Source: an uncultured Rikenellaceae bacterium
GTDB lineage: Bacteria; Bacteroidota; Bacteroidia; Bacteroidales; VadinHA17
NCBI GenBank assembly: GCA_964526345.1
Contig: CAZGKI010000003.1
Coordinates: 94,625 to 158,624 of the forward strand
Direction: 5' to 3'
Length of the DNA stretch: 64,000 nt
Shown: positions 5,490-56,611 of the stretch, in pieces
How positions within the stretch are numbered: the stretch's first letter is position 1
How the letters are laid out: each line of letters begins with the position of its first letter
Program-made: the position numbers and the translations under genes
The notes under the pieces: generated by a model
What the model was told of the DNA's origin: nothing
Database searches by the model: none
Seen by the model: only the letters and a program-made list of their open reading frames with translations

Positions 5490-5533
5490 AAGTACATGAT
5501 AGTTAAGTCTTTAAAATATAATCTGCCCCCAAT

Positions 5534-5594
5534 CCCTCTGAAGGGGGGCTAATTCAGTGCAGTATCTAGCCCCCCTTCAGGGGGGAACGGGGGG
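5534..5594. repeat. Inverted pair of a C6-TTCA-G6 mini-hairpin repeat unit (ACTGAATTAGCCCCCCTTCAGRGGG family)
   Basis: CTGAAGGGGGGCT (5538-5550) is the perfect reverse complement of AGCCCCCCTTCAG (5568-5580), with a 17-nt spacer. The same unit recurs at 16681-16765. Confidence 0.85.
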
Positions 5595-7002
5595 TTGGTT
5601 CTATGATTTCTGTTTTATAATCAATTCCAGCCCTCGCATCTTCAGGGGAAGCTGCATTACCACATGCTGCCTGTACAAAAAGAGAAGCTCCCAGCACTGT
5701 CGTTTCTTTCTGGTCAATCACTTTTATCGGCACTCCCGTATATGCAGCTCTCAGCCTGTTCCACAACCTGTTTTTTGATCCGCCTCCGACACATACTATA
5801 CTATCGGTTTTAAAACCTCCTGCTGACTCGAGCGCATTCTTTCCTTCAATAAGCCTTTCAGAAAGAGCCTCCAGCATTGCGCGATAAATCTCATCACGAG
5901 TCGATTCCATTGTCAGTCCGAGTATCTGACCTCCGGGTTTCCCCTTCAGCTCTTCATAGAACTTAGGTACTATCTTAATTCCATTTGAACCGGCTGGTAC
6001 TTTCTCCGCACCTGCGATCATTTTCTCATAAACATTTTCTTTAATATCATTGTAAAGGTTTCTCCTGGCCCATTCAAGTATACCTGAGGCAATCCATTGA
6101 TTACCGATATTATACAGTCCGGGACGGGCGTCAAGCTCCGTGGTTATTGACATATCCAGCTGCTCTTTTCCTGATTTACAGGCTTCAGACCTTACCATCA
6201 GGATTTCCCATGTTCCAGAGCTGAGCACCGGCTGATTTTTTTCAGCTCCCGATCCGAATATTGCAAACTGCGTATCGTGTCCGGTGGCAACAACAGGAAT
6301 ACCTGAAGGTAAACCAGTGACCTTTGAAGCTTCGGTTGTAACTTTTCCCGTCACAGTCCCTGCTTCCACTGTATCTCCAAGCTTTTCAGCAGGGAATCCG
6401 GTTTTCCCGAGAATATTATCTGAAAACTTTCGTGAGGAAAGACTTGTCACCATTGAGGTCCCTGCCATTGTTGTATCATTGACCATCTCACCTGTAAGAA
6501 AGAAGGAGAAAATTGACGGCATAAACAAGAACCTGTAACTTTTATCGATAATATCCGGCTTTTGTTCAACAAACCAGATGAGCTTGTTAATTGTATTGAA
6601 AGTAAACGGAAGAACGCCGCATTCTTTATACAGATCGGCCAGAGGGATGTATTTTCCTATATTTGCCATTATCGGGCTGGTCCTTTCACACTGCCATGAA
6701 ATGACCGGATATAGCATCTTCCCTGTTTTGTTAAAGAGTGTTCCATCAACACCGAATGTGGTTACAGTAACTCCCGCAATTTCATTTTTATTGATGTTCC
6801 CAGTAACTTTCAGCGAGGTCTGACACATTTTTCCCCAGATCTCGTCAACATCCCAGATCCTGTAAGAAGGATAGAAGGGATCCGGTTTGGTATTATTAGG
6901 CAGCGATTCTGAAGCAAGAATTATTCCCTTGCTGTTAATGGCAATAACCCTGACGTTTGTCGCACCGCAGTCAAAAACAATTACAATATCTCCTCCCGGC
7001 AT
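5566..7002 (-). CDS. fucK: L-fuculokinase (FGGY carbohydrate kinase)
   Basis: 478 aa. The N-terminus IVFDCGATNVRVIAIN resembles E. coli FucK LVLDCGATNVRAIAVN. It lies in a cluster with fucI. Its last ~9 codons and stop lie inside the repeat at 5566-5594. Confidence 0.8.
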   Translation of the reverse strand: MPGGDIVIVFDCGATNVRVIAINSKGIILASESLPNNTKPDPFYPSYRIWDVDEIWGKMCQTSLKVTGNINKNEIAGVTVTTFGVDGTLFNKTGKMLYPVISWQCERTSPIMANIGKYIPLADLYKECGVLPFTFNTINKLIWFVEQKPDIIDKSYRFLFMPSIFSFFLTGEMVNDTTMAGTSMVTSLSSRKFSDNILGKTGFPAEKLGDTVEAGTVTGKVTTEASKVTGLPSGIPVVATGHDTQFAIFGSGAEKNQPVLSSGTWEILMVRSEACKSGKEQLDMSITTELDARPGLYNIGNQWIASGILEWARRNLYNDIKENVYEKMIAGAEKVPAGSNGIKIVPKFYEELKGKPGGQILGLTMESTRDEIYRAMLEALSERLIEGKNALESAGGFKTDSIVCVGGGSKNRLWNRLRAAYTGVPIKVIDQKETTVLGASLFVQAACGNAASPEDARAGIDYKTEIIEPTPRSPLKGG

Positions 7003-7027: not shown

Positions 7028-7100
7028 CCGAACCACGGTGTCGCCTTCGGCAGCTATAAGCTTGACGATGGCTGCACAGAATTGACACGCTGTAACACTG
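7028..7100. repeat. Degenerate copy of the CACAGAG-heptamer/hairpin element
   Basis: The stretch AACCACGGTG ... GCAGC-N16-GCTGC ... CACAGAA-ttga-CACGCTG-taa-CACTG matches the family. CTGCCGAAGGCGA (reverse complement of 7041-7053) resembles the TCTGCCGAAG hairpin arm at 37933. Confidence 0.5.
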
Positions 7101-9385: not shown

Positions 9386-9424
9386 ATTATATATATTAGA
9401 AAAACACTATGTTTTGGGGCCAAA

Positions 9425-9432
9425 CAAATATA
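9425..9432 (-). promoter_or_regulatory. Candidate -7 box (TATATTTG) for fucI
   Basis: Exact TAnnTTTG on the minus strand, 39 nt upstream of the fucI ATG. Confidence 0.4.
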
Positions 9433-9457
9433 GTGATTTATTTTCCTCCCTGAGAAT

Positions 9458-9564
9458 CTCTGTGAATCTCTGTGACTTCTCTGTGGTCCTCAGTGCAAGT
9501 TCTTACACCGAGAGCCACAAAGTAAACACAACTTGTCCCGATCTATCGGGAGAGAACCACGGAG
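9458..9564. repeat. CACAGAG-family element: four phased CTCTGTG units, linker, two degenerate units, hairpin, terminal unit
   Basis: CTCTGTG occurs at 9458, 9468 and 9479, and CTCAGTG at 9489 (spacing 10-11-10). Next come the linker CAAGTTCTTA, then CACCGAGAG/CCACAAAG, then the hairpin TCCCGA-tcta-TCGGGA (9536-9551), then CCACGGAG. Confidence 0.9.
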
Positions 9565-9570
9565 TTTTAT

Positions 9571-9578
9571 TACCTTTG
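9571..9578 (+). promoter_or_regulatory. Candidate -7 box (TACCTTTG) for lipA
   Basis: Exact TAnnTTTG, 20 nt upstream of the lipA ATG. Confidence 0.4.
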
Positions 9579-9598
9579 TCATTCATTAGAAAAATATA

Positions 9599-10453
9599 AT
9601 GCAAAAAGGCAGACGCTTACCGGGATGGCTTAAGATGCAGCGAGCAAGCGGAGAGAACTATACAAGGGTCAAGAGACTTGTTGAAAATAATCATCTCCAT
9701 ACAATCTGTACCAGCGGCAATTGTCCCAATATAGGGGAATGCTGGAATGAAGGGACTGCAACTTTTTTGATACTTGGTGACATTTGTACCAGGGCATGTA
9801 GATTCTGTGCCACAAAAACGGGAAAGCCTTTGCCCCCCGACGAGGGAGAACCTTTACGTCTGGCTGAAACAGTACGGACATTAAACCTGAAACACTGCGT
9901 AGTTACCTCTGTCGACAGAGACGATCTTCAGGACGGAGGCGCATCATTCTGGGCACTGGTTGTTAAGACTATAAAAGAGATAAATCCAGGCCTGACAATC
10001 GAAACATTGATTCCTGATTTTAACGGGAAACAGGAAAATGTACAGATGATCATTGATGCAAATCCGGACGTTATTTCTCATAACGTTGAGACAGTCAGAC
10101 GACTAACTCCTTTGATCAGAACGAAAGCCAGGTATAAGAGAAGCCTCGATATAATCAGGTATATTTCTTCTGAAGGTAAAATTGCCAAATCGGGATTTAT
10201 GCTGGGACTGGGAGAAAATGAAAATGAAATATTTGAAACCATTGATGATCTGTATGATTCAGGATGCAAAGTAGTGACCATCGGGCAGTATCTCAAGCCG
10301 TCACAAAAACATATGGATGTTGTTCAATATATTTCGCCCGGGAAGTTTGAAAATTACACTGAATATGCACTTTCAAAAGGTTTCAGTTTTGTGGAATGCT
10401 CACCTCTTGTACGTTCCTCTTTTCATGCCGGCAAACATGTATATGCTCGATAA
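9599..10453 (+). CDS. lipA: Lipoyl synthase (radical SAM)
   Basis: 284 aa. It has the cysteine clusters CPNIGECW and CTRACRFCA and the typical LipA length. Confidence 0.93.
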   Translation: MQKGRRLPGWLKMQRASGENYTRVKRLVENNHLHTICTSGNCPNIGECWNEGTATFLILGDICTRACRFCATKTGKPLPPDEGEPLRLAETVRTLNLKHCVVTSVDRDDLQDGGASFWALVVKTIKEINPGLTIETLIPDFNGKQENVQMIIDANPDVISHNVETVRRLTPLIRTKARYKRSLDIIRYISSEGKIAKSGFMLGLGENENEIFETIDDLYDSGCKVVTIGQYLKPSQKHMDVVQYISPGKFENYTEYALSKGFSFVECSPLVRSSFHAGKHVYAR

Positions 10454-15077: not shown

Positions 15078-15093
15078 TTACTTCTATTTGTTA

Positions 15094-15131
15094 CACAGAG
15101 CTTCACAGAGGGGTCACAGAGGACCACAGAG
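15094..15131. repeat. Array of four phased CACAGAG heptamers
   Basis: CACAGAG occurs at 15094, 15104, 15115 and 15125 (spacing 10-11-10). The array ends 1 nt before the stop codon of the GxxExxY gene. Confidence 0.95.
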
Positions 15132-15132
15132 G

Positions 15133-15504
15133 TTATCTTATGAATCTCCTGATACCGCTTTTAAGTATCATAACATTGAAATTTATAAGTAAACCGATTT
15201 TCTTGTTGGCAAATTTCATATAGGTAAGAATCTGGGCTTCATGAACGGGGTTGAATTCATCAACCACCTTAAGTTCTATTATGACCAGGTTCTCAACTAA
15301 AATATCGATACGGTAACCAAAGTCCAGTTTTATATCCTTATAGACTACCGGAGCAGGTTGTTGTCTTTTAATACTCAATCCAGCCTTACTAAGTTCAAAA
15401 GCCAGGCACTCTTCATATGCGGATTCCAGCAGACCTGGTCCCAGATTTTTATGTACCTCAATTGCACAACCTATTATCACTCTTGTAATTTCGTTTATTT
15501 CCAT
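15133..15504 (-). CDS. GxxExxY protein (PD-(D/E)XK nuclease-fold family, PF13366/TIGR04256-like)
   Basis: 123 aa. GLLESAY is the GxxExxY motif. The segment YRIDILVENLVIIELK fits a D...E-x-K restriction-endonuclease-like core. The gene is flanked on both sides by heptamer arrays. Confidence 0.85.
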   Translation of the reverse strand: MEINEITRVIIGCAIEVHKNLGPGLLESAYEECLAFELSKAGLSIKRQQPAPVVYKDIKLDFGYRIDILVENLVIIELKVVDEFNPVHEAQILTYMKFANKKIGLLINFNVMILKSGIRRFIR

Positions 15505-15524
15505 ACCTGATTATTATTTATTTT

Positions 15525-15602
15525 TCTCTGTGGTTCTCTGTGTCTTTTTATCCGCCGAAGCACCAGCGAAGGCGGATTCTGTGATCCTCTGTGTAAGTTC
15601 TT
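15525..15602. repeat. CTCTGTG x2, hairpin, CTCTGTG x2, TAAGTTCTTC block
   Basis: CTCTGTG occurs at 15525 and 15535. The hairpin is ATCCGCC-N14-GGCGGAT (15549-15576). Then come TTCTGTG at 15576, CTCTGTG at 15586, and TAAGTTCTTC at 15593-15602. Confidence 0.95.
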
Positions 15603-15670
15603 CAAAAAATAGCATCATTCCTGTCCGTTAATTCCGCTTTTACTTTGCTCTATTTTCGGTTAAACTTTTT

Positions 15671-16519: not shown

Positions 16520-16585
16520 AAAAAATTAATCCGAAAAAAAGGATTGTTTTTTTTATTTTGCCTTATAGTTACAGAAGACACCCCC

Positions 16586-16765
16586 GGCCATACTACGTAT
16601 GGCCACCCCCTAAAGGGGGTCTAATACTCTGCATTATATATAATTATACTATATTCGTATGCATAATTTTTAATTACTTAAACTGTATTAGCCCCCCTTC
16701 AGGGGGGTCGGGGGGTCGGGGGGTCGTTTCACCCGGTACTGAATTAGCCTGTCTTCAGAGCCTGT
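16586..16765. repeat. Cluster of GC mini-hairpins and two direct copies of the TTAGCCCCCCTTCAGGGGGG-type unit with a (TCGGGGGG) tandem
   Basis: GGCCATAC-tac-GTATGGCC lies at 16586-16604, CCCCC-TAAA-GGGGG at 16606-16619, and CCCCCC-TTCA-GGGGGG at 16692-16707. These are followed by TCGGGGGG TCGGGGGG TCG. A degenerate second unit, GTACTGAATTAGCCTGTCTTCAGAGCC, lies at about 16736-16762. Confidence 0.85.
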
Positions 16766-16801
16766 CACAGCCGGAGGACGAGAGGGGTTGGGTGGTAGTC
16801 T

Positions 16802-17308
16802 TCAATTGGTCTTATATGGAAACTTTACCTTTTTAAGCTCTTCATTGGCATCAACAATCTTCTTCTTAAGATTCTCCTTGAATTTTACGACATCCTTCAT
16901 TATTTCCTCATTGCCTGTGCCTATTATCTGCGCAGCCAATATACCTGCATTCTGTGCAGCATTAACGCCGACAGTAGCTACCGGAATTCCGGGAGGCATC
17001 TGGAGGATAGAGAATATTGAATCGAGACCCTCAAGGGAGGCTTTTATCGGAACACCTATTACAGGCAATGGCGTCATTGCGGCAATGACACCCGGAAGAT
17101 GAGCAGCCATGCCTGCTGCTGCTATGATAACTTTAATACCCCTTCCTGCCGCACCCTTTGCAAACTTTTCAACTTCTTCAGGGGTCCTGTGAGCAGATAA
17201 AGCATTAAACTCAAAAGGTATCCTGAAATCATTAAGAACCTGTGCTGCCTTCTCCATTACAGGCAGGTCGGAAGTGCTTCCCATTATTATGCTTACTAAT
17301 GGTTCCAT
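16802..17308 (-). CDS. purE: 5-(carboxyamino)imidazole ribonucleotide mutase
   Basis: 168 aa with IIMGSTSDLPVM and AAGMAAHLPGVIAAMT motifs. Confidence 0.92.
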   Translation of the reverse strand: MEPLVSIIMGSTSDLPVMEKAAQVLNDFRIPFEFNALSAHRTPEEVEKFAKGAAGRGIKVIIAAAGMAAHLPGVIAAMTPLPVIGVPIKASLEGLDSIFSILQMPPGIPVATVGVNAAQNAGILAAQIIGTGNEEIMKDVVKFKENLKKKIVDANEELKKVKFPYKTN

Positions 17309-21307: not shown

Positions 21308-21337
21308 GTATTTTCGGTTTGATACTATTTATTGTTA

Positions 21338-21354
21338 CACGGAGAACCACAGAG
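21338..21354. repeat. Two-unit remnant of the heptamer array (CACGGAG-aac-CACAGAG)
   Basis: TTGTTACACGGAGAACCACAGAG has the same TTGTTACAC prefix as 15088 and 10-bp spacing. Confidence 0.6.
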
Positions 21355-21363
21355 TAGAATGGA

Positions 21364-22110
21364 ATGGATATTTTAAAGTCAATAATTTTCTGGCTTGAAG
21401 GGATTGTTCTCATGCTCCTCTTTTTTCCTCTTACGTTAATTGTATGGATTATTGTACTGCCCTTTGACAGGAATCGTATAATAACTCACTGGATGCTTGT
21501 ATACCAGGCTCTTATTATTTCTTATGTGATCCCAATCTGGAAAATAAAGATTGAAGGAAGAAAGAAAATTGAACCTGATAAAACCTATGTTATCATTTGC
21601 AACCATCAGTCGATCCTTGATATACTTCTTATTAACTGCCTGAGATACAGGTATAAGTGGATCTCAAAAATTGAAGCTGTTAAAGTACCTGTCTTGGGTT
21701 GGTACCTTAAGATGGCTGGTTATATTACTGTCGACCGGGGTGATAAGGATAGCAAGGAGAAGATGCTTGAAGAGGCCTTTTTGTGCCTGAAAAAGGGGAT
21801 TTCCATTATGATATTTCCTGAAGGAACACGTTCTGCTGACAACCAGATCGCATTTTTTAAACGGGGAGCATTCCAGCTGGCAATTTCTGCAGATATCCCA
21901 ATTCTGCCTGTAATGATAGATGGAAGCGGTGGTGTTCTTCCGAAACATGGGTTTATTTTTGGCGGGTTCCACAGGATAATCATTAAGGTTTTTGACCCGG
22001 TACCACCCGACAAATTCAGTTCACGGATTCCGGAGGAGCTGGCATCTGAATTTCAGGATATGATGGCGATGAAACTTAAAGAAATAAGAGCCAACCGGCA
22101 CACCAAATGA
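21364..22110 (+). CDS. plsC: 1-acyl-sn-glycerol-3-phosphate acyltransferase
   Basis: 248 aa with an N-terminal TM helix, the HX4D motif NHQSILD, and FPEGTRS. Confidence 0.85.
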   Translation: MDILKSIIFWLEGIVLMLLFFPLTLIVWIIVLPFDRNRIITHWMLVYQALIISYVIPIWKIKIEGRKKIEPDKTYVIICNHQSILDILLINCLRYRYKWISKIEAVKVPVLGWYLKMAGYITVDRGDKDSKEKMLEEAFLCLKKGISIMIFPEGTRSADNQIAFFKRGAFQLAISADIPILPVMIDGSGGVLPKHGFIFGGFHRIIIKVFDPVPPDKFSSRIPEELASEFQDMMAMKLKEIRANRHTK

Positions 22111-37882: not shown

Positions 37883-37908
37883 TTATTTGATTTATATCGA
37901 GTTAACAC

Positions 37909-38037
37909 CTCCGTGGTCCTCTGTGTTTTTTATCTGCCGAAGCTTTAGCTGAGGCAGACTCTGTGGTTCTCTGTGTAATAATATAAATTGAAGAACTTAC
38001 ACAGAGGTTCACAGAGCAGGCACAGAGATTCACAGAG
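37909..38037. repeat. Complete gene-less copy of the heptamer/hairpin element
   Basis: CTCCGTG lies at 37909 and CTCTGTG at 37919. A T-run precedes the hairpin TCTGCC-N14-GGCAGA (37933-37958). CTCTGTG follows at 37959 and 37969, then a 24-nt AT spacer ending GAAGAACTTA. CACAGAG then occurs at 38000, 38010, 38021 and 38031 (spacing 10-11-10). Confidence 0.95.
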
Positions 38038-38048
38038 AGCAACCATTA

Positions 38049-50235: not shown

Positions 50236-50325
50236 CCACTAAGACTCTAATTCACAAAGTTTCACGAAGTCAGGCAGTTAATTGAATATTAACTTTGTGA
50301 TCCTTAGCGTCTTTGTGTCTTTGTG
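50236..50325. repeat. Variant heptamer element (CACAAAG/CTTTGTG)
   Basis: CACAAAG lies at 50253 and CACGAAG at 50263. On the other arm, CTTTGTG lies at 50293, CTTAGCG at 50303, and CTTTGTG at 50311 and 50319. The inverted-block layout matches the CACAGAG family. Confidence 0.7.
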
Positions 50326-56462: not shown

Positions 56463-56512
56463 TTTCTCAAAGCTTTATTTAAATAATCTATTTTGGATAA
56501 CAACTTTTAAAC

Positions 56513-56611
56513 CACAGAGTTACACAGTGTTTGAACGGAGTTACACGGCTTATCATTAACATAGTAGTCTAACTCTGTGTACAACTCTGTGTAACTCAGT
56601 GTAACACCGTG
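56513..56611. repeat. Gene-less, partly degenerate inverted heptamer element
   Basis: The left arm has CACAGAG at 56513, CACAGTG at 56523, ACGGAG at 56535 and CACGG at 56544. The right arm has CTCTGTG at 56573 and 56585, CTCAGTG at 56595 and CACCGTG at 56605. Confidence 0.85.

Follow-up and report, generated by a model that had tools for sequence, protein, structure and literature searches.

We describe a family of short intergenic repeats in a 64,000-nucleotide (nt) stretch of DNA from an uncultured Rikenellaceae bacterium (GCA_964526345.1, contig CAZGKI010000003.1; the whole stretch is hereafter called the window) and their association with the gene of a small nuclease of the GxxExxY family. 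The repeats are arrays of the heptamer CACAGAG, spaced 10-11 bp apart and arranged in inverted blocks, as at positions 37909-38037. The original prediction for this DNA, which had drawn attention to the heptamers, overlooked the GxxExxY gene that the arrays at 15094-15131 and 15526-15593 bracket. We favour a reading in which arrays and nuclease form a partnership similar to that between repetitive extragenic palindromic (REP) sequence doublets (REPINs) and their REP-associated tyrosine transposases (RAYTs), with the heptamers as protein-binding sites and the nuclease as the binder; we judge the chances of this reading to be about even.

The arrays stand out clearly from the composition of the window. 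Exact CACAGAG occurs 25 times on the two strands, against 4.99 +/- 2.32 in dinucleotide shuffles (maximum 10), and the 17-mer CACAGAG-N3-CACAGAG is present 25 times at up to three mismatches, where 2.88 are expected. Same-strand heptamers with at most one mismatch are spaced by 10 nt in 14 cases and by 11 nt in three. Although intergenic DNA makes up just 7.5% of the window, it accounts for 22 of the 25 exact heptamers and contains 10 phased pairs, whereas 1000 first-order Markov simulations of the intergenic segments yielded a mean of 0.21 heptamers (maximum 3) and no phased pairs. The enrichment over shuffles and the absence of phasing from simulated intergenic DNA establish the arrays as real, and the 10-11-10 spacing of unit starts proposed for the three best arrays (9458, 15094 and 38000) is exact. 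Every locus originally listed proved to be intergenic when positions were compared with genes, and the arrangement in inverted blocks was likewise borne out. An nhmmer profile trained solely on 122 arrays from other genomes and then run on the window gave its strongest matches at 15085-15134 (E 1e-14), 37994-38038 (E 1e-13) and 9456-9502 (E 3e-11), followed by 56571-56607, 37957-37983, 21330-21357, 15578-15599, 56512-56546, 9498-9530 and 15525-15544. This supports six of the eight loci on the original list; the other two, 7028-7100 and 50236-50325 (a CACAAAG variant), had no match to the profile at E < 10 and are therefore treated as unproven, at best decayed or variant copies. The repeats are not an artefact and constitute a genuine modular, non-coding, intergenic family.

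The basic unit of the family is the pair CACAGAG-N3-CACAGAG, and a block of about 38 nt consists of two such pairs joined by 3-4 nt, often AAGA, with TTA ahead. The consensus reads TTA-CACAGAG-TTA-CACAGAG-AAGA-CACAGAG-TTA-CACAGAG, in which each position of the TTA head is 73-88% conserved, conservation of the linkers being otherwise weak; the generalised heptamer is CRCRGAG. Of 156 arrays in other genomes, 83 have an inner gap of 4 nt and 59 one of 3 nt, while in the remaining 14 it measures 5-7 nt. The reading frame is not conserved because the gap is 3 or 4 nt, and a coding repeat, for which the 21-nt period (10 + 11) could have held the frame, was rejected. Arrays combine into inverted doublets with spacers of 14-25 nt, which either converge on a loop of roughly 14-20 nt or diverge from a spacer of some 20 nt with the form TAA...AAGAACTTA, and the doublets alternate in mosaics. 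An alternative pair junction contains an insert of about 35 nt with a small GC hairpin, seen at 15543-15576 and 37926-37958 with 81% mutual identity. Small GC hairpin modules (tcccgatNNNatcggga; ccgccgaagc...gaaggcgg) recur in the middle linker between heptamer pairs, both in the window (9540-9556, 15543-15576 and 37926-37958) and at loci in other genomes (L038, L131, L138, L141, L164, L168, L180 and L198); either the middle linker is an insertion hot spot, or a hairpin-bearing variant of the array exists.

The element at 37909-38037 is a diverging doublet without a gene, and the hairpin insert lies in its left array. The rightward, plus-strand array (38000..38037; CACAGAG-gtt-CACAGAG-cagg-CACAGAG-att-CACAGAG) has 10-11-10 spacing and matches the profile at E 1.3e-13; it stops 12 nt short of the ATG of a DUF3109 gene (38049), and is 83% identical to 15091-15131 and 88% complementary to 9457-9504. 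Between the two arrays lies an A/T-rich spacer, TAATAATATAAATTGAAGAACTTA (37976..37999, plus strand), of which the 3' part, (G)AAGAACTTA, is the conserved extension found before left-hand arrays. The leftward, minus-strand array comprises an inner pair, CTCTGTG-gtt-CTCTGTG in plus-strand letters (37959..37975; nhmmer E 3e-5), a middle-linker insert composed of a T-run and a small GC hairpin (37926..37958; atctgcc gaagctttagctga ggcagac), and an outer pair with one mismatch, CTCCGTG-gtc-CTCTGTG (37909..37925), which alone is weak by profile (E 0.2). The insert is 81% identical to 15545-15596 and forms a side branch in the predicted fold; similar inserts occur in L138, L141, L168, L180 and L198.

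The arrays at 15094-15131 (plus strand) and 15526-15593 (minus strand) bracket an open reading frame (ORF) at 15133..15504 on the minus strand, which encodes a GxxExxY protein of 123 amino acids (aa). The full form of this cassette spans 15091-15605: one array precedes the ATG by about 20 nt, and a second, inverted one begins 1-3 nt past the stop codon. On the sense strand of the gene, its downstream (3') end is the plus-strand four-unit array at 15091..15131 (nhmmer E 1.2e-14), which abuts the stop codon. Its upstream (5') end on the minus strand (15526..15605) consists of a pair (15526-15542), the hairpin insert (15543-15576), a second pair (15577-15593) and then TAAGTTCTTCAA, the complement of TTGAAGAACTTA; it contains two of the profile matches given above and is 96% complementary to 37988-38015.

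The encoded protein matches NCBIfam TIGR04256 (E 6.9e-45; 152.2 bits against a cut-off of 35) and Pfam PF13366, PDDEXK_3 (E 5.5e-43; 146.5 bits against a cut-off of 22). Across 36 aligned relatives E27 (within G24-L-L-E27-S-A-Y30), D67, E77-L-K79 (ExK) and Q91-x-x-x-Y95 are invariant, a set of residues that corresponds to the RecB/Cas4-type PD-(D/E)XK active site. The AlphaFold (AF2) model is confident (predicted local distance difference test score 89.9), and in a fold search the best PDB matches, all weak, were Cas4 SSO0001, lambda exonuclease and LHK-Exo (E 4e-3 or worse; template modelling (TM) score 0.44-0.53), while a sequence search of solved structures returned no relative. Judged by sequence and model, the protein is a minimal RecB/Cas4-like PD-(D/E)XK nuclease that retains its catalytic motif and looks active. 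PADLOC gave just weak Cas4-like similarity, and a role as a defence system was set aside. The family is very large, with 23,291 clusters at 50% identity matching at E <= 1e-3, and the genes to which the arrays are tied code for proteins of 120-140 aa. Many of its representatives of 266-295 aa (P0241-P0251 and others) carry two tandem GxxExxY domains, which are either real fusions or gene calls that read through adjacent cassettes. A survey of PD-(D/E)XK nucleases in 2012 listed the function of the family as unknown (PMC3424549), and our search of the literature on GxxExxY/PF13366 found no function and no link to any DNA element.

Among relatives of the window gene, the association with arrays is near-universal. 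We picked 80 metagenome loci by protein similarity alone (72-87% identity) and counted an array if it lay within 200 nt of the gene; 67 loci, those in which the gene had 120 nt or more on each side, were evaluable. Arrays flanked the gene on both sides in 58 of these 67 loci, on one side in nine and on neither side in none, and an array in the position of 15091-15131 was present in 58 of the 67. An array was found in 115 of 125 gaps adjoining the gene, compared with 17 of 72 other gaps of the same loci and one of 24 gaps outside the shared context. Some 49 of the 80 loci are orthologous to the window locus (purE, PorQ-like gene, GxxExxY, 662-aa gene), and therefore the sample represents 22 genomic contexts rather than 80; by inspection, about 15 of these have arrays on both sides, about six on one side and none on neither. 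The canonical cassette consists of (A)AGAACTTA, four CACAGAG units, 15-25 A-rich nt, the ORF from ATG to stop, 1-3 nt, four CTCTGTG units and TAAC(A)n. AAGAACTTA precedes most upstream arrays of these cassettes, and the 10 nt ahead of the array are 73% identical among orthologues. The orientation of the gene relative to its flanking genes is the same in all 49 orthologous loci, and an inverton was rejected on this ground.

The association also emerges when loci are ascertained by their arrays. Among the 120 such loci listed, GxxExxY is the sole recurrent small neighbour (L045, L047, L112, L109 and L032); no other cargo gene recurs, and a 1.2-kb interval in L041 holds an ordinary host gene. Arrays and gene occur together in Ignavibacteriota (L045), Chloroflexota (L032), Lentimicrobiaceae (L112), Bernardetia and Bacteroides finegoldii, and a metagenome-assembled genome (MAG) of an alphaproteobacterium (L054) has a GxxExxY pseudogene beside arrays. 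In one Chloroflexota locus (L014) a remnant of the N-terminus of the protein is preserved between two arrays, which means that at least some gene-less doublets are deletion derivatives. Two larger arrangements of the module were observed. Downstream of the GxxExxY cassette of a Lentimicrobiaceae MAG (L112, 3480-4330), four five-unit arrays in the same orientation are separated by 50-nt spacers; here the module itself is tandemly repeated at a higher order, with a period near 90 nt. Five further loci (L187, L192, L194, L195 and L202) place the cassette within a dense alternating field of at least 10 arrays, with a DNA methyltransferase-like gene on one side and a helicase- or restriction-like gene on the other.

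The exact four-unit pattern occurs at at least 120 loci. Among the matches listed, hosts include Bacteroidales, Rikenellaceae, Chitinophagaceae, Saprospiraceae and Cyclobacteriaceae, as well as Ignavibacteria, Anaerolineae, Ktedonobacterales, Promineifilaceae, Kiritimatiellota, Bdellovibrionota, Gemmatimonadaceae, Acidobacteriota, Verrucomicrobiota, one cyanobacterium and several Proteobacteria. This apparent host range is inflated, because some of the listed matches are plain tandem decamers that fit the array pattern without being true arrays. Long uniform runs of (CACAGAGAAA)n or (CACAGAGTTA)n, reaching at least 13 units, were seen in L087 (Prevotellaceae), L089 (Limnohabitans), L103 and L017 (Ktedonobacterales), L105 and L106; they resemble either microsatellite-type expansions of the unit or decamer satellites that are unrelated to it. 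The array was present in just eight viral contigs and no GxxExxY relative was confirmed among viral contigs, which led us to discard a phage origin; a blastn search of plasmids with the consensus array returned no match, possibly owing to the low-complexity filter.

Array-flanked GxxExxY genes are present in at least Bacteroidota, Ignavibacteriota and Chloroflexota, and related motifs accompany more distant members of the family. The homologues of Bernardetia (WP_338790993) and Bacteroides finegoldii (WP_032839887), with 57% and 55% identity to the window protein, respectively, are flanked by CACAGAG/CTCTGTG. In Gemmatirosa (52% identity; 73% GC), three-unit arrays of CGCAGAG(G) form five inverted doublets in 50 kb, two of which flank the gene while three are gene-less. 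In Sphingomonadaceae (40% identity) the gene is fixed between fabD and fabG, with a conserved CACGCGGAGGCGCGGAGACGCGGAG ahead and no downstream array. Treponema and a fusobacterium (38% identity) have CACGGAT, and Prevotella and Persicobacter (37-38% identity) have other short phased direct repeats. A CRCRGAG-type motif thus goes with much of the GxxExxY family and is adapted to the GC content of the host; strict co-variation of motif and protein subfamily was dropped, as Gemmatirosa, sphingomonads, Treponema and Fusobacteria share CRCRGAG/CACGGAT variants. In the sphingomonads (Sphingomonas and Sphingobium; L222, L238-L246) the GxxExxY stop codon touches or overlaps the start of fabG, and a GGAG just ahead of the GxxExxY start codon comes from three conserved CGCGGAG units. 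In L235 (21131-26085), inside a conjugative transposon of Prevotella nigrescens, a distant GxxExxY gene is surrounded by six copies of a direct repeat. The repeat is about 70 nt long and combines the hairpin cggcgaagccg with phased ACAAATNG units; three copies take the form of 120-nt tandem repeats within an annotated hypothetical ORF. Tentatively, GxxExxY proteins could be the dedicated enzymes of an unrecognised class of repeat systems, in which the nuclease would read phased CRCRGAG and copy, excise or maintain small palindromic elements, as a nuclease-driven analogue of REPIN/RAYT with the same 7-bp site in use across at least six phyla.

Both arrays of the cassette are under strict constraint at their heptamers. 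For 47 orthologous loci, anchored on the gene rather than on the arrays, the best-placed four-unit array was scored over its 28 heptamer positions. Of the 47 loci, 34 had at most one mismatch in the downstream array and 32 in the upstream array, compared with 12-17 mismatches in control segments. Pairwise identity among the same loci is 0.36-0.52 in the linkers, and 0.84, 0.90 and 0.48 at the first, second and third codon positions of the gene. The linkers thus drift like third codon positions and the heptamers are better conserved than second positions; either selection or continual homogenisation thus keeps the heptamers more constant than non-synonymous sites. Changes between paired arms were one-sided in 169 cases and matched in four (about one expected; three of the four involve the commonest variant), and the N3 linkers of the two arms are no more complementary than chance. 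Because changes are mostly one-sided and the N3 linkers are not complementary, recognition of each heptamer by its sequence seems to fit better than maintained base pairs. The protein-binding scaffold suggested by the original prediction gains from these results, and a hairpin kept by covariation was disfavoured, as compensatory changes show no clear excess among heptamers that are almost invariant.

The same arrays are nevertheless predicted to fold with high stability (-60.1 kcal/mol for the doublet at 37900-38048, z -7.2 against shuffles). When the whole cassette is folded, each unit of the 5' array is predicted to pair with one of the 3' array, enclosing the ORF (z -5.3). An element that acts as RNA would make use of this: 5' CACAGAG and 3' CUCUGUG arrays would form 7-bp helices with 3x3 loops around the ORF or a short loop, and the resulting stem would serve for RNase III processing, mRNA stabilisation or termination, in the manner of REP hairpins or of the stems that border ribosomal RNA intervening sequences. 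The position of blocks close to stop codons (median 27-38 nt) is compatible with such a role, as are the terminator-like hairpin (L234) or other palindromic repeats (L229, L231 and L232) that relatives carry in the spacer between gpmI and the DUF3109 gene. By consensus the middle linkers of the two arms are complementary (AAGA and TCTT), and the upstream array always lies on the sense strand just ahead of the GxxExxY start, where it supplies the sphingomonad GGAG. However, the scarcity of matched changes and the chance-level complementarity of the N3 linkers argue against selection on a stem, and pairing alone would not fix both arms to one exact heptamer across phyla. Orientation relative to flanking genes is unbiased. 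The window has no Rfam 15 match at gathering thresholds, and in E-value mode only chance-level ones. In sphingomonads the stem is impossible, because only the upstream array is kept. On balance, we consider an RNA-level element, the foremost of the rival readings, unlikely.

The dispersed arrays turn over more rapidly than the cassette. Blocks of at least three units are intergenic in 201 of 202 cases and lie nearer to stop codons than to start codons, and their orientation relative to neighbouring genes is random (37 versus 29 at 3' ends; 26 versus 27 at 5' ends). The spacer between gpmI and the DUF3109 gene contains the same doublet as the window in L227 (87% identity in DUF3109) and an array in L233 (80%), whereas L234 (83%) has a plain 47-nt hairpin followed by a T-run, and L229, L231 and L232 (74-77%) have a C5-loop-G5 repeat family instead. 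The element is therefore gained, lost or replaced over short evolutionary time; the cassette next to the PorQ-like gene, by contrast, shows stable inheritance. In Anaerolineales HSG24 (L004, L040, L050, L069, L071, L073 and L085), we observed a multi-copy MITE (a miniature transposable element with inverted repeats) that measures about 170 nt and has outer inverted repeats CTTGCTACCCGAC.../...GTCGGGTACTRAG, 8-bp target duplications (TTTGGGAA in L050; ATCATAGG/ATCATAAG in L085) and a converging CACAGAG doublet inside. The array module can thus also ride on conventional transposition.

Such observations invite the opposite assignment of roles, in which the arrays are generic non-autonomous repeats resembling MITEs or bacterial interspersed mosaic elements (BIMEs), which owe their spread to host recombination or to trans-acting DDE transposases, and GxxExxY is a selfish, free-standing nuclease gene that inserts preferentially into them, in the manner of a homing endonuclease, instead of being the enzyme behind their spread. 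PD-(D/E)XK homing endonucleases exist, and one, I-Bth0305I, is among the weak fold matches. Besides the HSG24 element, with its own outer inverted repeats and 8-bp duplications, arrays elsewhere lie within other, longer repeat units (L041, for example, has three similar copies); the gene is present in just about five of the 120 array-ascertained loci listed; and in Gemmatirosa it lies between two complete doublets, not inside one. Yet a binder would still be needed to account for strict heptamer conservation, and arrays beside a vertically inherited gene have stayed intact past synonymous saturation, which is unexpected for a mere landing pad. The gene remnant between the arrays of L014 indicates that some doublets derive from cassettes, and CRCRGAG units accompany the gene even where dispersed copies were not seen, as in the sphingomonad fab operon. 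We regard this passenger or homing-target arrangement as quite unlikely.

An improbable alternative, which was the main picture of the original prediction, is that the arrays bind a nucleoid-associated protein or transcription factor and exert iteron-like or operator control over adjacent genes; the helical phasing of 10-11 bp, the conserved heptamers and the arrays that end 10-35 nt ahead of start codons (38037 before 38049, 21354 before 21364, 9564 before 9599) would suit it, but the neighbours are unrelated housekeeping genes to which the arrays are oriented at random, the element is present or absent at the same spacer among close relatives, its patchy spread across phyla is a better fit for a transferable element than for a conserved regulon, and the association with GxxExxY is strong. 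The likeness to iterons or to the sites of a local regulator does not hold for an array that recurs at at least 120 loci in many phyla, shows no orientation bias and is gained and lost at orthologous spacers. A polar regulatory element was rejected because of the unbiased orientation to genes. DNA-uptake and Chi-like sequences are single oriented words that lie largely in genes, and were rejected for a family in which 201 of 202 blocks are intergenic arrays in inverted pairs.

For the favoured REPIN/RAYT-like partnership of arrays and nuclease, we propose the following model. Each heptamer would be an individually recognised site, and the 10-11-bp phasing would place four sites on one face of B-DNA, so that several protomers of one protein could load side by side. 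The heptamers are probably sequence-specific binding sites for the GxxExxY nuclease, the most likely binder of the array. A single, mostly vertically inherited nuclease gene would reside among its own sites, and gene-less doublets would arise by internal deletion and also by copying or recombination, and would accumulate wherever intergenic DNA tolerates them. The sequence of the diverging doublets is exactly what a circular R-L junction would give. Several points weigh against this model. With about 123 aa, the protein consists of the nuclease domain alone and has no separate DNA-binding domain, and its fold matches are weak (best E 4e-3, TM 0.44). Binding or cutting of the arrays by GxxExxY, and their mobilisation by it, are what we infer from the association, which is itself weaker than the raw count suggests, with about 22 independent events rather than 80; moreover, about 115 of the 120 array-ascertained loci listed have no GxxExxY gene inside the 8 kb examined. 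The architecture varies from -> gene <- in Bacteroidales to (-> <-) gene (-> <-) in Gemmatirosa and an upstream array only in sphingomonads, and the genes of Prevotella and Persicobacter are flanked by different short direct repeats. The arrays form very stable RNA or single-stranded DNA hairpins, so that a role at the RNA level is possible. For the Bacteroidales elements (gpmI-DUF3109 and 21308-21363), the spacers are too diverged for a target-site duplication or a clean empty site to be defined, and the sole clear signature of transposition, the terminal inverted repeats and 8-bp duplication of HSG24, suggests that a DDE-type transposase acts on a larger MITE within which the arrays merely lie.

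The remaining array loci of the window illustrate different states of the element. The diverging doublet at 9458..9564, between fucI and lipA (nhmmer E 2.6e-11 and 8.5e-3), is made up of a minus-strand four-unit array (9458-9495), CAAGTTCTTA, a degenerate plus-strand pair (9506-9522), the hairpin tcccgatctatcggga and a final unit CACGGAG (9558-9564). A single plus-strand pair, CACGGAG-aac-CACAGAG (21338..21354; nhmmer E 7.6e-4), lies 10 nt ahead of the ATG at 21364; it is a remnant, for the orthologous spacer in a Rikenellaceae MAG (L038) has a full array plus a pair. The converging doublet at 56513..56611, between divergently transcribed genes, is partly degenerate with TTA/TAA linkers (nhmmer E 8.5e-6 at 56571-56607 and 3.5e-3 at 56512-56546). 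Of the two loci missed by the profile, 50253..50325 is a possible diverged CACAAAG/CTTTGTG copy with 3-mismatch matches only, not significant, and 7028..7100 is a doubtful, strongly decayed copy (CCACGGTG, a gccttcggc hairpin and CACAGAA), in which no block was called, also not significant. We also observed a second intergenic repeat family, in which C5-6-loop-G5-6 hairpins are followed by a (T/A)CGGGGGG run, for example CCCCCCTTCAGGGGGGTCGGGGGG (5526-5600 and 16590-16730). Its members directly adjoin CACAGAG arrays in L076 and L081, and in relatives (the gpmI-DUF3109 spacers of L229, L231 and L232) they occupy spacers where this genome has CACAGAG doublets. Two ORFs had originally been dismissed as translations of the CACAGAG repeat: the one at 9414..9599 is indeed a spurious call on an array, whereas that at 16558..16836 falls in the C5-loop-G5...G6 family.

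GxxExxY/PDDEXK_3 is a very large orphan family, and its near-obligate embedding in conserved phased arrays points to a testable function, the binding or cutting of CACAGAG. If the partnership holds, it would be a second, mechanistically different, vertically persisting association of repeat and enzyme beside REPIN/RAYT, operating in Bacteroidota, Chloroflexota and further phyla where REP-like biology has hardly been explored. The arrays also have practical consequences. They take up a measurable share of intergenic DNA (at least six loci in 64 kb), they cause spurious ORF calls, such as 9414..9599 in the window and the 34-35-aa 'genes' of TQR/HRE repeats at 2887-2991 in the L121-L130 loci, and they break assemblies, several lying at contig ends (L004, L008, L049 and L233).

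A 'REP/MITE-like' element was the best of the three roles originally offered, and comparison with known systems shows how far the likeness extends. Literature searches on CACAGAG and on Bacteroidetes MITE or heptamer repeats found no earlier description, and no Rfam family matched. Several short-repeat systems can be distinguished readily. CRISPR arrays (short palindromic repeats that are clustered and regularly interspaced) have repeats of 23-48 nt, unique spacers of similar length and cas genes, whereas the period here is 10-11 nt with linkers of 3-4 nt; the original exclusion of CRISPR stands, and Rfam gave no CRISPR match above threshold. Iterons are direct repeats of 17-22 bp at one origin beside a Rep gene, unlike 7-mers in inverted blocks between housekeeping genes at at least six loci in 64 kb. 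The subterminal transposase-binding repeats of Tn7 and Mu are similar in that several short sites are inverted at the two ends of an element, and Tn7 also uses a PD-(D/E)XK nuclease, TnsA. Unlike Tn7 and Mu, the present element of about 0.5 kb has no DDE partner, ATPase or target selector, and gene-less doublets vastly outnumber full copies. The TAACTGA direct repeats of Beggiatoaceae, Cyanobacteria and Bacteroidetes (MacGregor 2015, PMC4679880) and the cyanobacterial short tandemly repeated repetitive (STRR) heptamers share with CACAGAG an exact intergenic heptamer, a patchy occurrence across distant phyla that suggests horizontal spread and a frequent position just upstream of start codons. 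Those repeats are contiguous with a period of 7 and direct only, whereas CACAGAG units are spaced by 10-11 nt, form inverted blocks and are linked to a gene; long expansions in other genomes are tandem decamers such as CACAGAGTTA (L087, L089 and L103).

MITEs (Correia/NEMIS, ERIC, RUP and Nezha) provide a closer parallel, as small, non-coding, intergenic elements with terminal inverted repeats, here the arrays including their TTA...TAA ends, that are partly internal-deletion derivatives, as in L014; HSG24 even has a true MITE with 8-bp target duplications that carries arrays. In the lineage of the window no target duplication was found, its spacers being too diverged for insertion boundaries to be defined. 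The elements differ from MITEs in that this lineage has yielded no transposase, that the inverted ends are phased heptamers, and that the recurrent cargo, GxxExxY, is not a known transposase, the other neighbours being unrelated host genes. Enterobacterial BIMEs are likewise modular mosaics of alternately oriented units with short linker motifs and extra hairpin modules, but differ in unit sequence, internal phased structure, host range and associated gene. The closest comparison is with REP and REPIN elements and their RAYT transposase (Bertels & Rainey 2011, PMC3116915; PMC3337134). Both systems consist of short, high-copy intergenic repeats in inverted doublets with a short spacer and in alternating mosaics, and in both, one small nuclease-type gene flanked by the repeats is inherited largely vertically at a fixed locus, while the repeats persist over long divergence. 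However, the gene between the arrays encodes a PD-(D/E)XK GxxExxY protein rather than an HUH tyrosine RAYT (IS200/IS605 TnpA-like), although no search for a RAYT was made elsewhere in the window. A REP is an imperfect palindrome of 20-40 bp with a GTAG/CGTC head, whereas each arm here is four phased, direct, non-palindromic heptamers with the head TTA-CACAGAG, and REP sequences are lineage-specific, whereas the same heptamer recurs in many phyla. Collectively, the system seems to work most like REP/REPIN-RAYT and resembles BIMEs and MITEs, yet it departs from each of them in the features by which that class is defined.

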